Assembly (NCBI GenBank): GCA_964405765.1
Contig: CAYOPC010000004.1
Location: 1-41,232 of the forward strand
DNA: 41,232 nucleotides
Direction: 5' to 3'
Source of the DNA: an uncultured Gammaproteobacteria bacterium
Lineage (GTDB): Bacteria > Patescibacteriota > Microgenomatia > UBA12405
Every line of letters starts with the position of its first letter. Within the stretch, counting starts at the first letter, position 1. The notes below the pieces were generated by a model, which was not told where the DNA came from, searched no databases, and saw only the letters and a program-made list of their open reading frames with translations. Of this stretch, positions 31,578 through 40,278 are shown piece after piece. Both the position numbers and the translations under genes were made by a program.

Positions 31578-32035
31578 GGAGATGTATTGCATCGACGGAG
31601 CATGAACTTTAAAAAACGGCAAGCCGACTTTGATCCATTGAGTCGTTTCGTCCATAGGACGATCAGCCTCTGGCTGAAAACAGGGTTAAAACAAAAAATG
31701 CTAAAGAAAAACTTAGCAAGTTAGCTACCGATTTCACTGCCTATTTAGGTAAGGTTGCCGGTACTTCTTATCAACCAGCTTTGGCTGTTTGCTAAGAGAC
31801 TCATCACTTAGTTTTCTGTTTCGAGGGGAATTGGGTGGTGTAAATTAAATCGAAATGCAATCTCGATCTTCTCGGTTAGATCGTGGATTAAAGCGAGGGG
31901 TAATGCCCTCAACAATCGACATCCCGACACATTTTATGAATTTCTGTCGTCGGGAGTGTAGGTCAAAATTCTTTAAGCTTGTAGATGTTTTTTTGAGTCT
32001 GCTTTCGGACCCGGGTTCGTTACCTGGCATCTCCG
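31578..32035 (+). ncRNA. ssrA: tmRNA (SsrA)-like RNA
   Basis: 5' GGAGATG pairs with 3' CATCTCC. The 5' box GCATCGACGGAG resembles the tmRNA GGATTCGACGGG box. T arm is CCGGG-TTCGTTA-CCTGG. An internal frame ends ..YQPALAVC-TAA (stop at 31793..31795). smpB lies 4.2 kb away. Confidence 0.72.
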
Positions 32036-32040
32036 CCTTC

Positions 32041-36247: not shown

Positions 36248-36661
36248 TTATCTGATGGTTTTTTTGATTTCCTGATCTTTGATTTTGGCGCGTTTTTCGT
36301 ACTTACGCATTTTGCGGCCGACACCGATTTCGACTTTAAACCATTTGCCGTGAAGGTAAATGGCGATGGGAATAATCATGTATTTTTGGTGACGGAAAGA
36401 CTGCAGTTTGGCAATTTCTTTTTCGGATAACAAAAGATTTCGGTCAAGGGTTTTGTCGGTGGCGATATTTTGAGAATATTTGTAAACAGGAATTTTGAGG
36501 TTAAATAAAATGGGCTGACCGTTGACAACTTCGACTTTGGAACCAATGAATTGGGGTGTTTGGAGACGCAAAGATTTGGCGTCAGCGCCAGTAAGGGCTA
36601 GCCCGGCTTCGAATTTGTGAATAAACTGGTAATCAAGGGAGTCCTTGTTGAAGTAACGCAT
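36248..36661 (-). CDS. smpB: SsrA-binding protein SmpB
   Basis: FEAGLALTGADAKSLR, LLLSEKEIAKL, the VEIGVGRKMRKYEKR basic tail, and 137 aa length. Confidence 0.9.
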   Translation of the reverse strand: MRYFNKDSLDYQFIHKFEAGLALTGADAKSLRLQTPQFIGSKVEVVNGQPILFNLKIPVYKYSQNIATDKTLDRNLLLSEKEIAKLQSFRHQKYMIIPIAIYLHGKWFKVEIGVGRKMRKYEKRAKIKDQEIKKTIR

Positions 36662-36681: not shown

Positions 36682-36815
36682 AAACCTCTCTGTCCCTCGA
36701 CGAGCTCGGGACATCTCCCCTTAAAAAAGGGAGAAGTCTTTAAGACAAAACCCACCCTTTGATTTAAACCCCTCAGACTCGCTTTGCTCGTCAGCTCCCT
36801 TTGATTAAGGGGAGC
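36682..36815 (+). repeat. palindromic repeat units (type D, short remnant, type B)
   Basis: AAACCTCTCTGTCCCTCGACGAGCTCGGGACATCTCCCCTTAAAAAAGGGAGAAGTC ... AAACCCCTCAGACTCGCTTTGCTCGTCAGCTCCCTTTGATTAAGGGGAGC. The 3' flank TTATAGTTTGCCAGTGGCAGACTGAGG resembles 31353..31378. Confidence 0.85.
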
Positions 36816-36860: not shown

Positions 36861-37142
36861 TTAAAATTTACAAACTAATTCACAAACAGCTGCACAAAAA
36901 CCCCCAGGTGAATGACGACAGGGGGAAGTACAGGAATCGAACTGACCCAAAACAGAAGCACAAAGAAAAGAAAGTTTATAACTACCAGACCGCATTAAAT
37001 AACATTCATTATATTCAGAAGAATATTTTCCCCCAATACTAAGACAGGTGTTTTTAAATCTAGATCTTTGAAAAAGAATATAAATAATAATTAAGACTAT
37101 TACAGATAGAATACTTAGAAAAAATTTTAATTTTTTGGGCAT
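36861..37142 (-). CDS. small membrane-anchored 8-cysteine protein (paralog 1)
   Basis: 93 aa with an N-terminal TM anchor. The conserved C-terminus SC.SPCRHSPGG.C...CE.VCKF is shared with the neighbouring ORF. Confidence 0.6.
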   Translation of the reverse strand: MPKKLKFFLSILSVIVLIIIYILFQRSRFKNTCLSIGGKYSSEYNECYLMRSGSYKLSFLCASVLGQFDSCTSPCRHSPGGFCAAVCELVCKF

Positions 37143-37179
37143 ATTTTTAAGGAGATTTTTGGTTAGTAATTTTCAATTT

Positions 37180-37452
37180 TTAAAATTTACAAACTTGTTC
37201 ACACATAGTAATACAGACACCTCCTGGTGAATGGCGGCAAGGTGAGGCACAGGAACTATATTCGCTACCAGTTAGAGTACACAACAATCTGAGGACCTTA
37301 CCACCTTGACATTCGCGATAATCAGAAAGATATTTACCGCCACTAAGAGTACAGATTGTTGAAGGTTGATATTTTTTGAGAAAAATACCAAACAAATAAA
37401 GAAATAAAAATATTATTGGAATAATTAAAAGATATTTTATTTTTTTTGACAT
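37180..37452 (-). CDS. small membrane-anchored 8-cysteine protein (paralog 2)
   Basis: 90 aa with the same architecture and the same eight Cys positions as 36861..37142. Starts 6 nt after the stop of the 612-aa gene. Confidence 0.6.
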   Translation of the reverse strand: MSKKIKYLLIIPIIFLFLYLFGIFLKKYQPSTICTLSGGKYLSDYRECQGGKVLRLLCTLTGSEYSSCASPCRHSPGGVCITMCEQVCKF

Positions 37453-37457
37453 TGTTT

Positions 37458-39296
37458 TTATAAACTAATTTGGTAAATTTTTTGGTCGGAGGCGAGAAAA
37501 TAAATGGTTTTGTTGGCTGAATCGAAAGCAACGTCGAGAACCTGAAGGTCGCCAAGATTAAATTTAAATCCAAATTCACCGGTTTTTTTGTAGACATAAA
37601 TAAGCTTTGAATTATCAGAAAAAACTAAAAAATCACTGTCAATATCGGTGGTTAGACTAGCGGCTTTGGTAAAATTAATTTCCTGATTTTGATTAAATTT
37701 ATTTTTGATGCCGCTGTTATAAAGATAGATACGACCGGATTCGGTAAGAACCCAGATTTGACTGTCAATAGAGAGTGAAGTAGCACCAAGTTCGAGTTTG
37801 GCATCATTTTTTAACCAATTTTGAGGAGTAGAATAACCAGAAGCGCTAGGGGTAGATTTCCAAACGGCTTGAGAATTTTTATCTAAGATATAAAATGATC
37901 CGTTCCAAAATTGGGCATCGGTAACAGTAATTGAAGAAGGGATATCAATTTTTGAAGTCAGACCACTTTTTTCTACTAAATTAACTTGATTTTGAGATAG
38001 AAGATAAAGATTATTACTGTCGATTAAAATTTTGGTGGCGGATTTAATTTGATCAGAGATCAAAATGTTTTTGGTAGATTTTTCCTTAGGAAGAACAGTA
38101 TCGATACGACCGTTGGTGGAATCAAGAAGATAAAGAAATGATTTTGAAAAGATTATTTTAGAAAACTGAGGATGATTGGTAATAAGAGAGGTATCGTAGA
38201 TTGATTGGGGTTGAAAACTATCACTGTCGCCAGTCTGAGATAAAATTAAATCGACTTGAGACTTGTATTGATGGACTTCGTCGGTATGAATATTAAGCTG
38301 AGACATTTGAGAAATAATTTCCTGGGCCTCTTTGGCGGATTGGTAAGTGGCTTCAAGATTGAGATTTTTGACCACAGAAATATTATTAAGTTTAGTTTCT
38401 AATTCCGACTTGAGAATTTGGAAACCAGTTTCGGCTTTTTGGGCTTGATTTTTTTGATAACCAAAATAAGAACTAACAATAAGTCCAATTAGTAAAAACA
38501 AAGCAATAGATAACTGAATTTTTTTATGATTGCCGATTTTAAATTTAAAACGGTTTTTGACATAGATATTAGGTTGGTGAGAACGAGGAGGAATAACAGT
38601 ATTCGGATTGGCTGATGGAATTGGTGGGGATGATGGAGCAATGTCCGGGGAAGGTGAAACAGTTGAAGGATTATTAATATCAGTTTCGTCTGAATGAATT
38701 TCAATTAAAAATGATGAAAGATTATTTTGGTTTTCCAGGGAATAAAGATCGGCTAAAAAGTTTTCTTCGATATTTTGAATTTTTGGATCAACAAGGGTGG
38801 ATTTGATTTTTTCCCAACCAATTTGGTCAATAAAATCAGTAGTAGCCAAGATAATTCGGTCCTGATTTTTAACAGGTCCAGAAATCTGAGAAAATTGGTT
38901 TGAAACTCCAATAATAAGTTGGCTGATTTTTGAATCACGCTGGAGAATAGCCTGGTTTTGGTTATAGACAGCGATATAAGCTTGTTGATGATGGAAAATT
39001 AACAGAGATAAGCTGATTTGAATATCAGGAAAGGTACGGTTGATAACATGTTTCTCGAAAGTTTTAGCTAGTTTTTGACTGATATCGTTTTCGGTTTGGG
39101 CGAAAAATGACTGGTTAATTTGATTAATAATTTCTCTACCAATGGTTTTGAGATCCTGAGAATTATGGTGGTCCTGAAGACTGATTAAGCCGAAAAGGTG
39201 GGTTTGAGATAAGGAAGAATCTGGTTCACTTTCCCATGTTTGAGACCAGAATTGAGGATTGTTCTTACCGATGAAAGACCGACAATTAAAATGCAT
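37458..39296 (-). CDS. bitopic membrane protein: degenerate PP2C-like N-domain, Pro-rich linker, TM helix, repeat-rich extracytoplasmic domain
   Basis: 612 aa. N-terminal HLFGLISL...LSLLIFHHQQAYIAVYNQNQAILQRDSKISQL resembles a PP2C/SpoIIE strand pattern but lacks the metal-binding Asp residues. It has a PSPDIAPSSPPIPSANP linker, one TM helix, and a C-terminal beta-rich region (propeller-like by pattern only). Confidence 0.6.
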   Translation of the reverse strand: MHFNCRSFIGKNNPQFWSQTWESEPDSSLSQTHLFGLISLQDHHNSQDLKTIGREIINQINQSFFAQTENDISQKLAKTFEKHVINRTFPDIQISLSLLIFHHQQAYIAVYNQNQAILQRDSKISQLIIGVSNQFSQISGPVKNQDRIILATTDFIDQIGWEKIKSTLVDPKIQNIEENFLADLYSLENQNNLSSFLIEIHSDETDINNPSTVSPSPDIAPSSPPIPSANPNTVIPPRSHQPNIYVKNRFKFKIGNHKKIQLSIALFLLIGLIVSSYFGYQKNQAQKAETGFQILKSELETKLNNISVVKNLNLEATYQSAKEAQEIISQMSQLNIHTDEVHQYKSQVDLILSQTGDSDSFQPQSIYDTSLITNHPQFSKIIFSKSFLYLLDSTNGRIDTVLPKEKSTKNILISDQIKSATKILIDSNNLYLLSQNQVNLVEKSGLTSKIDIPSSITVTDAQFWNGSFYILDKNSQAVWKSTPSASGYSTPQNWLKNDAKLELGATSLSIDSQIWVLTESGRIYLYNSGIKNKFNQNQEINFTKAASLTTDIDSDFLVFSDNSKLIYVYKKTGEFGFKFNLGDLQVLDVAFDSANKTIYFLASDQKIYQISL

Positions 39297-39308
39297 TAAT
39301 TAATGATA

Positions 39309-39539
39309 CTACAAAGCCAACATACTTAGGACCAAAATTACAGAAAAAATTAAGTGAATAAAAGAAAAAATAATCAGAACAATATTAAATTTATCGGTGA
39401 TACTTTTGGACATAGAGGTGACTTGTTTAACTACGATCAGGGCAAAAATTACATAGAGGATAGAAAGTATAATAAAAAATATTTTGGTAATACCAAAAAA
39501 ATAGCTACCGAGATTATTAAAATCAGTCAGGTCAAGCAT
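39309..39539 (-). CDS. small two-TM membrane protein
   Basis: I place the start at the ATG at 39539 (MLDLTDFNNLGSYFFG..), which overlaps the upstream stop (ATGCTTGA). 76 aa with two hydrophobic helices. Confidence 0.5.
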   Translation of the reverse strand: MLDLTDFNNLGSYFFGITKIFFIILSILYVIFALIVVKQVTSMSKSITDKFNIVLIIFSFIHLIFSVILVLSMLAL

Positions 39540-40278
39540 GCTTGCCTCCTTTTTGTTCTTCCAAATCACGTAACTCTTTGAGAAGTTTAATAATTTTTTC
39601 TGGATTAGGGACTTTTTCAAAATTAATCTGATTAATTTCAGAGGCGGTTTGAATGAGAACATCGCCATAATTAAAGAAAGTTCCCAAAAGACCTTTGACT
39701 GAAGAAGAAACATCCTGAATCATGGAAAGATCAGCTTCAGCAAAATGCTTGTTGAGAAGATTGTTAAAATCAATATCAACAACTCTTTCATTGGTAATTA
39801 GGAAAACATTAAAATACCAGCTGAGAAACTTTTCGAAGGCGTAAATAAAAGTAAAAAGATACCAAAAGAGAACGGCGGAAAATTGAAATTGACCGGGGAA
39901 AAAATTTAAAAAGCTAAAATAATGAAAAAATAGAGGGACAAAAAGCATAAGAATGCCAACAAAAACCCAATGAAGATTAGTAATCCAATGAGGTCGAATA
40001 GCTAAATAGATTTCTTCACCTTCGTCTCGCTCCGAAAAAGAAAAGATTTTGGGACGAACAAGAAAAGAGGAAAATGGAGTTTTGGTATGACCTAAAATAT
40101 CATAAATTTTTCGATAAAAATCTTCGTCATGGTCTGGTTTTTGAGAGGAGACTTTAACAGATTTTGAAGATTTTTCTTTGGTGATAGAAGGTTTGATGGG
40201 ATCTGTTTTTTTGGCTGATGGAGAAGTAACTACCGGGTCATCCGGAGCAATAGTATCTAAATCTTTGGAACGGATCAT
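39532..40278 (-). CDS. bacterial PH-domain (YdbS/YdbT-like) membrane protein
   Basis: Two central TM helices are followed by ITNERVVDIDF....DVLIQTAS, typical of bPH_2 domains. Confidence 0.65.
   Translation of the reverse strand: MIRSKDLDTIAPDDPVVTSPSAKKTDPIKPSITKEKSSKSVKVSSQKPDHDEDFYRKIYDILGHTKTPFSSFLVRPKIFSFSERDEGEEIYLAIRPHWITNLHWVFVGILMLFVPLFFHYFSFLNFFPGQFQFSAVLFWYLFTFIYAFEKFLSWYFNVFLITNERVVDIDFNNLLNKHFAEADLSMIQDVSSSVKGLLGTFFNYGDVLIQTASEINQINFEKVPNPEKIIKLLKELRDLEEQKGGKHA

Follow-up and report, generated by a model that had tools for sequence, protein, structure and literature searches.

Tandem membrane-anchored proteins of a Patescibacteriota genome carry a widespread and apparently uncatalogued eight-cysteine domain

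The DNA analyzed here, called the window, is a stretch of 41,232 nt (positions 1-41,232 of contig CAYOPC010000004.1) from assembly GCA_964405765.1 (GTDB lineage Patescibacteriota; Microgenomatia; UBA12405), an assembly of 764 kb in 86 contigs that is 93% complete. Two adjacent genes encode the small proteins P0001 and P0002, each consisting of an N-terminal membrane anchor and one domain of about 60 residues with eight cysteines (8-Cys domain). The best overall explanation, favored with modest confidence, is an anchored and rigid surface module for binding or spacing, probably held by four disulfides and carried as an accessory, recombining cassette. Small disulfide-rich surface modules are familiar, and the 8-Cys domain appears to be a distinct and widespread family among them.

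The paralogous genes and their domain

The two genes and their parts are located in the window as follows.

37180..37452, minus strand: P0002, the upstream paralog, 90 aa (coordinates with the stop codon); signal anchor and one 8-Cys domain
37378..37434, minus strand: hydrophobic signal anchor of P0002, residues 7-25; best 19-residue Kyte-Doolittle window 2.73
37183..37362, minus strand: 8-Cys ectodomain of P0002, residues 31-90, from the domain hidden Markov model (HMM) of 54 family members and the domain-only AlphaFold2 model
36861..37142, minus strand: P0001, the downstream paralog, 93 aa (coordinates with the stop codon); signal anchor and one 8-Cys domain
37074..37130, minus strand: hydrophobic signal anchor of P0001, residues 5-23; Kyte-Doolittle window 2.80
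36864..37055, minus strand: 8-Cys ectodomain of P0001, residues 30-93, from family alignments; cysteines at 33, 47, 61, 71, 75, 83, 87 and 91

A sequence-only reading of the window had described the pair as tandem paralogs with a shared membrane anchor, eight cysteines at equivalent positions and a nearly identical C-terminus, and on these points it was right, coordinates included. The two proteins are 41% identical (BLASTP, E 1e-22). Both have a Lys-rich start and then some 19 hydrophobic residues, and both end in SC(T/A)SPCRHSPGG(F/V)C...CE(L/Q)VCKF. The cysteines align throughout, with the spacing C-x13-C-x9/13-C-x9-C-x3-C-x7-C-x3-C-x3-C. The N-terminal string that had been reported is likewise real, but its register was slightly off: the common string is GGKY(S/L)S(E/D)Y(N/R)EC. 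By inspection, no Ala-x-Ala or lipobox cleavage motif is seen in the P0002 anchor. The exact P0002 protein is present on 23 public contigs and matches the family profile with E 5e-45; the P0001 relatives P0008-P0010 are 95%, 75% and 74% identical to it. A near-identical contig is known from an activated-sludge metagenome.

P0001 and P0002 are genuine genes under purifying selection. Word-indexed searches with either protein reached close relatives only, whereas an exhaustive HMMER profile search with their alignment, over 1.84 billion representatives, returned 551 clusters at E<=1e-3 and 41 at E<=1e-10; the lack of homologs that the earlier reading had allowed for is thus not what is found. 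For the five type-A alleles with recovered DNA, the Nei-Gojobori ratio of nonsynonymous to synonymous substitution rates (dN/dS) lies between 0.16 and 0.37 in all ten pairs, in the anchor and the ectodomain alike (0.16-0.29 for P0002 against the four other alleles), which indicates purifying selection on the coding frame. It also leads to the rejection of gene-wide positive or diversifying selection, for which a survey had been proposed, notwithstanding the 5' allelic swap in two strains described below. Variation among close alleles, indels included, is concentrated in the C2-C3 and C5-C6 loops. That the two open reading frames (ORFs) are spurious, chance products of AT-rich DNA, has a negligible probability: inspection shows no GGAGG-type Shine-Dalgarno sequence before either ATG, but this conservation, together with the retention of the eight cysteines across two domains of life and the confident structure prediction, refutes it.

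AlphaFold2 predicts a compact alpha/beta domain, with a mean predicted local distance difference test score (pLDDT) of 81.5 for full-length P0002 and, for the domain alone, a pLDDT of 84 and a predicted template modelling score of 0.64. The predicted ectodomain topology is H-E-E-H-E-H-E: a helix, a beta-hairpin, a helix, a strand, a short helix and a strand. In the full-length model, a helix covers residues 3-27, the anchor region.

Extent of the 8-Cys family and its relation to known domains

The family HMM aligns 172 domain instances from 158 proteins. The consensus reads C-e-x2-G-G-k-W-L-x-e-Y-n-E-C-E ... C-x2-l-G-G-x-F-n-e-C-A-S-A-C-R-H-d-P-x-a-x2-C-I-x-v-C-V-x-V-C-K-F. The full set of eight cysteines is kept in 168 of the 172 instances, and the Arg-His after C5 in more than 80%. 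A hydrophobic N-terminal segment precedes the domain in 142 of the 158 proteins, 20 have a lipobox, and in 142 the domain lies at the extreme C-terminus. Ninety are, like P0001 and P0002, no longer than 135 aa, i.e., an anchor and the domain. In the longer ones, the fusion partners are PsbP_2 (PsbP-like), DUF333, PG_binding_1, ZnuA, Gmad2, Kazal_1, Omp85 and DUF3298. All of these are envelope or periplasmic, so that the 8-Cys domain, judged from its partners, is extracytoplasmic at the family level. At the N-terminus of Omp85-superfamily outer-membrane proteins, it is found in Terriglobales/Acidobacteriota (L062, L073).

Two further motifs, both without a Pfam match, accompany the domain in some members. 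A recurrent cysteine motif, GGDRDxHGCxGSAGYSWCxxKxKCLRxWEExC, precedes it in several Patescibacteria proteins (L101, L102, L104, L106, L072, P0057), and a likewise recurrent module FxxCxxAGxPVMESYPRxC stands alongside it in lipoproteins, many of them very acidic (P0012, P0015, P0029, L064, L086, L096).

A pattern scan of one genome per species gave 50 confirmed loci. Their bacterial hosts belong to Paceibacterota, Saccharibacteria, Peregrinibacteria, Terriglobales/Acidobacteriota, Promineifilaceae and Gammaproteobacteria, the last including the cultured Endozoicomonas numazuensis DSM 25634; the archaeal hosts are Woesearchaeota, Nanobdellota, Nanoarchaeia, Methanosarcinales and Nitrososphaerota. 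A scan of metagenomes for the 8-Cys motif gave only two loci, and no match was obtained by tblastn in phage and plasmid collections. The motif is not peculiar to a reduced-genome organism, the setting in which the earlier reading had discussed it: both Bacteria and Archaea have the domain, in many cases as one module within a larger envelope protein. Within the lineage it is sparse, with 8 carriers among 400 other genomes sampled from the phylum.

Within the libraries searched, the domain is apparently an uncatalogued family, in agreement with the earlier statement that no named family has this motif. Beyond noise on the anchor, nothing was found for P0001 and P0002 in Pfam-A or NCBIfam at E<=1. 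The 54 family members show no recurrent Pfam or NCBIfam family, only scattered sub-threshold matches, mostly on the hydrophobic anchor. PADLOC and PHROGs scans, a PDB sequence search with the close alignment and a PDB fold search with the domain model gave no match to the 8-Cys domain. Ferredoxins, zinc ribbons and other metal-cysteine domains, the first two of which had been named as matches that would undo the reading, have no counterpart here in Pfam, NCBIfam or the PDB, by sequence or by fold.

The only PDB match, with the broad alignment, is a protist cytochrome bc1 hinge protein (QCR6/UQCRH; 9fq7 chain 3J) with E 0.01 and 19 bits. It is a small acidic disulfide-stapled protein, as the 8-Cys proteins may be; it shares the identical C-x13-C...C-x9-C-x3-C spacing and a W-L-x-E-Y-N-x-C string. 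However, this marginal match spans C1-C5 only and Foldseek finds no hinge protein. Mitochondrial hinge proteins are all-helical hairpins; the 8-Cys model, by contrast, is alpha/beta with a G-G hairpin. The match is probably chance or convergence.

DUF333 (PF03891), the 'putative hemolysin' lipoprotein domain, was considered as a relative and rejected. It is also a small exported cysteine-containing domain with a local C-x3-G-G turn, and it occurs in the same polypeptides as the 8-Cys domain (P0028, P0033, P0041, L078). It has, however, only four cysteines in 47 residues and lacks the C-A-S-x-C-R-H...C-x3-C-x3-C tail. An hhalign comparison of 118 non-redundant domain rows with five DUF333 segments gave a probability of 1.35% over eight aligned columns, the shallow DUF333 side limiting the power of this test. 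DUF333 (gathering score 25 bits) has no match in P0001 or P0002 at E<=1, and the 25 families listed when the 54 members were scanned at E<=10 do not include it; its only detections, in P0028 and P0033, are as a distinct domain at the N-terminus.

Large cysteine-rich extracellular proteins of Peribacteria, which average about 1,655 aa, have been described within the Candidate Phyla Radiation (CPR) and proposed to confer rigidity or attachment, with variation between strains (PMC4736985). P0001 and P0002 share with them the cysteine-rich composition, the CPR envelope setting and the strain variation. The Peribacteria proteins resemble Myxococcus cysteine-rich repeats, whereas P0001 and P0002 differ in their size (90-93 aa) and in their distinct 60-residue domain.

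The family comprises at least 551 clusters at 50% identity and at least eight fusion architectures in Bacteria and Archaea. Defining the domain would annotate hundreds of 'hypothetical' envelope proteins, many of them in CPR bacteria and DPANN archaea, two groups with a little-known surface biology. Concrete leads to the function come from the ZnuA insertions and the Kazal fusions, both taken up below, and experiments could start from Endozoicomonas numazuensis DSM 25634, whose homolog is a 141-aa lipoprotein (L075).

Disulfides, metal and other possible functions

An exported module of about 60 residues, as had been proposed, is the picture given by the export signals of the family, and the module is most likely disulfide-bonded in view of the way in which its cysteines are lost. 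In genome G019, the degenerate copy at the syntenic position is missing just C4 and C7. Three other Patescibacteria have half-domains in which just C1 and C2 are gone and the six-cysteine core is intact. Cysteines are thus lost only in pairs, which favors four disulfides over a metal site. Export and an even number of cysteines in the variants, the two traits looked for in a disulfide-bonded extracytoplasmic domain, are both present. For one member, P0036, the gene that follows 25 nt downstream encodes a secreted DsbA-like protein with a C-Y-F-C site, and the domain occurs in aerobic Gram-negatives (Endozoicomonas, Terriglobales). The periplasm of such bacteria oxidizes cysteine pairs by the DsbA/DsbB system.

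Several observations weigh against a disulfide-stapled, outward-facing module. No VKOR was found in the window's own genome, at its completeness of 93%. Its only DsbA-like match is weak, and no C-x-x-C was found in it, only a monothiol F-C-P-Y-G; an oxidizing pathway is therefore not evident in this organism. This only candidate thiol-disulfide oxidoreductase of the genome is the following.

G000 contig C10, L023:844-1905: 353-aa membrane-anchored Cys-rich protein with weak DsbA/Thioredoxin_4 similarity

In addition, the conserved His beside C5 and the insertion of the domain at the position of the ZnuA His-loop fit a metal role as well. Lys and Arg number 3 against 2-3 across the P0001 and P0002 anchors by inspection, which leaves the positive-inside rule ambiguous. 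Finally, no conserved neighbor across the 50 loci hints at a binding target. In an all-against-all BLAST of 148 flanking proteins, with Pfam scans of representatives, only close relatives grouped and the representative neighbors were unrelated housekeeping genes; a conserved operon partner across the family was not found in this way.

The strongest competitor, to which a real but clearly smaller chance is given, is an extracytoplasmic metal-binding module for Zn, Cu or an Fe-S-like cluster. The cysteines and the His would be the ligands, and the stand-alone copies would serve as surface metal buffers or metallochaperones. Eight near-invariant cysteines next to the Arg-His, the anaerobic life of many hosts and the unclear disulfide-forming pathway of the own genome are all consistent with it. 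The most suggestive evidence comes from ZnuA-family binding proteins, which carry one or two copies of the domain just ahead of the DPH-x-W ligand motif (P0016, P0122 and L068 in CPR; also L065 and P0112). One of these fusions is followed by an ABC ATPase gene. In the CPR versions, the canonical His ligands are replaced (DPT/DPE/DPI, DPYYW, FTD). On the other hand, the archaeal ZnuA fusions retain their own His ligands; the canonical ones are kept in L065, from a metagenome-assembled genome (MAG) of Nanoarchaeia, and in P0112. The ZnuA loop is also simply a site that tolerates insertions. Paired loss with even parity is typical of disulfides, unlike ligand spheres; the half-domain variant G118 has Glu-Glu in place of the Arg-His; the domain is found in the oxidizing periplasm of aerobes; and no metal-binding family or structure was matched. 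On balance, the four-disulfide knot comes out ahead of the metal site, though not decisively.

Zinc-specific ZnuA proteins, such as those of E. coli and Synechocystis, have a His-rich loop at the position in question. Both this loop (ZnuA/AdcA, PF01297) and the 8-Cys domain stand before DPH-x-W and offer many potential soft ligands. The loop is a flexible His/Asp/Glu segment, whereas the 8-Cys domain is a folded, Cys-rich, putative metal binder with CPR carriers that lack the His ligands. A bolder version of the metal-binding proposal, which must be regarded as speculative, would make the domain a new-fold capture module for soft metals (Zn or Cu) in Bacteria and Archaea, replacing the His-rich loop in ZnuA-type importers. 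The free-standing, strain-variable copies would then be surface metallochaperones, scavenging metal at the host interface in ultra-small symbionts.

Improbable is a small disulfide-rich protease inhibitor of the Kazal, TIL or pacifastin kind, which would guard the envelope or, with a reactive loop that varies, act on proteases of hosts or competitors. The 8-Cys domain has the size, the cysteine density and the extracellular site of canonical inhibitors, and its close alleles vary, by indels too, in the C2-C3 and C5-C6 loops. In DPANN lipoproteins from Nanobdellota/Woesearchaeota MAGs (L063:2989-3522 and L087), a true Kazal_1 domain (E 2.9e-9) comes directly after it, and one member adjoins an M48 peptidase gene. 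Pacifastin-like domains recognized by structure only were described in CPR genomes in 2026 (PMC13388995). However, in L063 the Kazal_1 match covers residues 138-163, outside the 8-Cys domain. On the domain itself the Kazal HMMs (PF00050/PF07648) have no match, and such a match together with the six-cysteine V-C-G-x-D-G-x-T-Y pattern was not found; nor was the six-cysteine scaffold with the three-stranded fold of the solved pacifastin inhibitors. No Pfam inhibitor match is significant (the best, TIL PF01826, has E 0.14, in 4 of the 54 members), no structural match exists in the PDB fold search, the cysteine spacing is unlike the Kazal and pacifastin patterns, and the peptidase is not a conserved neighbor. 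Kazal-type domains offer a plausible functional analogy, that of a rigid knot displaying loops.

A toxin- or bacteriocin-like secreted peptide, one of the roles proposed for P0001 and P0002 from the sequence, is very improbable. The proteins are small, Cys-rich, duplicated and strain-variable, and 4 of the 54 members have weak matches to YxzE-like putative bacteriocins (best E 0.025), but instead of the double-glycine or otherwise cleavable leader of a class II bacteriocin they have a long, uncleaved-looking anchor. Immunity, ABC-exporter and modification genes were not found nearby, the neighbors being a 612-aa membrane protein gene and smpB, and no neighbors are conserved. Large structural envelope proteins and binding proteins contain the same domain as a module, and it is absent from the phage and plasmid collections, PADLOC and PHROGs.

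The rigid, probably disulfide-stapled and loop-presenting surface module is the most economical reading. We infer the disulfide state, the pairing and the topology of P0001 and P0002 as follows. Both would be small type-II proteins, with the N-terminus in and the C-terminus out, and each ectodomain would be one copy of the widespread extracytoplasmic domain with its predicted compact fold, characterized beside the cysteines by the elements G-G-x-W/Y, E-C-E, A-S-x-C-R-H and V-C-K-F. C1-C2 would form a self-contained N-terminal unit and C4 would pair with C7, leaving C3, C5, C6 and C8 for the two remaining disulfides. The resulting rigid knot would show the variable C2-C3 and C5-C6 loops at the cell surface. 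The domain may act as a stable binding or spacer module, either alone on its anchor or capping larger envelope proteins at their C-terminus; the binding function is a guess. In this lineage, the genes are an accessory cassette between the membrane-protein gene and smpB, duplicated and recombining between strains.

Copy number, allelic exchange and the surrounding locus

The locus includes the following further features.

37458..39296, minus strand: membrane-protein gene conserved across the genus (612 aa, single-pass), 5 nt upstream of P0002
37256..37441, minus strand: cassette that varies between strains, covering the 5' two-thirds of the P0002 gene (anchor through Cys3), replaced by the unrelated allele P0007 in L014 and L015
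36662..36860, no strand assigned: spacer between P0001 and smpB with a GC-rich hairpin at 36794-36815, reported on the plus strand only in a terminator-like scan
36248..36661, minus strand: smpB (Pfam SmpB, E 5.7e-28), 199 nt downstream of P0001

The Cys genes had been placed at the end of a five-gene operon. It is true that the 612-aa gene, P0002 and P0001 are co-directional, with gaps of 5 and 37 nt; the membership, however, is not conserved. DNA upstream of smpB was recovered for 29 other species of the genus, and in most of them the homolog of the 612-aa gene is separated from smpB by an empty interval of about 80-200 nt. A Cys gene occupies this slot only in G025 (one copy) and G019 (one degenerate copy). 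Convincing full-length matches were obtained in only 3 of 36 sampled species (E <= 4e-10), and two further 17-bit matches are broken by stop codons. The third of these species is G030, in which the slot is empty and a divergent 120-aa homolog lies elsewhere (L005:1489-1851), next to an Hsp20-like gene and a small four-cysteine membrane protein. The metagenome strain L021 has one P0001-type copy, and L016 has a type-A copy and a third, 'type C' copy. The survey of copy number that had been suggested thus gives 0, 1 or 2 copies in related strains and genomes, with at least four allele types. With the slot mostly empty and the number variable, the Cys genes form an accessory insertion in this genus, one whose copy number varies, and are not fixed members of a five-gene operon.

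A comparison of the window with two independent assemblies, L014 (JGI) and L015 (ENA), reveals an exchange inside P0002. Over 8.8 kb, the window is 98.3% identical to L014 and 98.1% to L015. P0001 matches its counterpart in L014 at 100% and that in L015 at 96.5%, and the adjacent genes stay at 98.7% identity or above (99.3-100% in the comparison that defines the cassette), except for a small mosaic tract in smpB (smpB as a whole, 95.7%). At 37256-37441, by contrast, 94 of 186 positions differ, indels included, and identity resumes exactly at codon ~67 and continues through the end of the gene. The replacing 5' part of P0007 has at most 70% DNA identity to any sampled allele; its donor is therefore not among them, and conversion from the neighboring paralog or from the 'type C' copy is rejected. 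A diversity-generating retroelement is rejected as well, because indels and changes of all base types run across the 5' half instead of A-specific changes in a C-terminal repeat. Such a sharply bounded swap in otherwise near-identical strains suggests a turnover of the stand-alone copies at the cell surface from strain to strain, which is relevant to the host or phage interactions of episymbionts.

The mosaic tract in smpB (window 36404-36599) contains 18 substitutions against L014/L015 within about 200 nt, and its flanks are 99.4-100% identical. This pattern suggests a separate recombination patch. An independent metagenome contig (L112:1-136) ends inside the downstream Cys gene, which fits an assembly break at a strain-variable spot.

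The 612-aa membrane protein has no Pfam, NCBIfam or PDB sequence match. A full-length transfer-messenger RNA (tmRNA) is identified by Rfam at 31578-32038 on the plus strand (67.3 bits, E 3e-24; 461 nt against a model of 374 positions) but not reported by ARAGORN. About 4.2 kb separate it from smpB, and this interval contains a 1191-aa orphan ORF. A 134-aa ORF with a DUF5657 match (39309-39713) overlaps a 248-aa ORF (39532-40278) by about 180 nt. Gene calling on L014, a near-identical contig, yields a product of 76 aa instead, so that an internal ATG is probably the true start of the DUF5657 gene.

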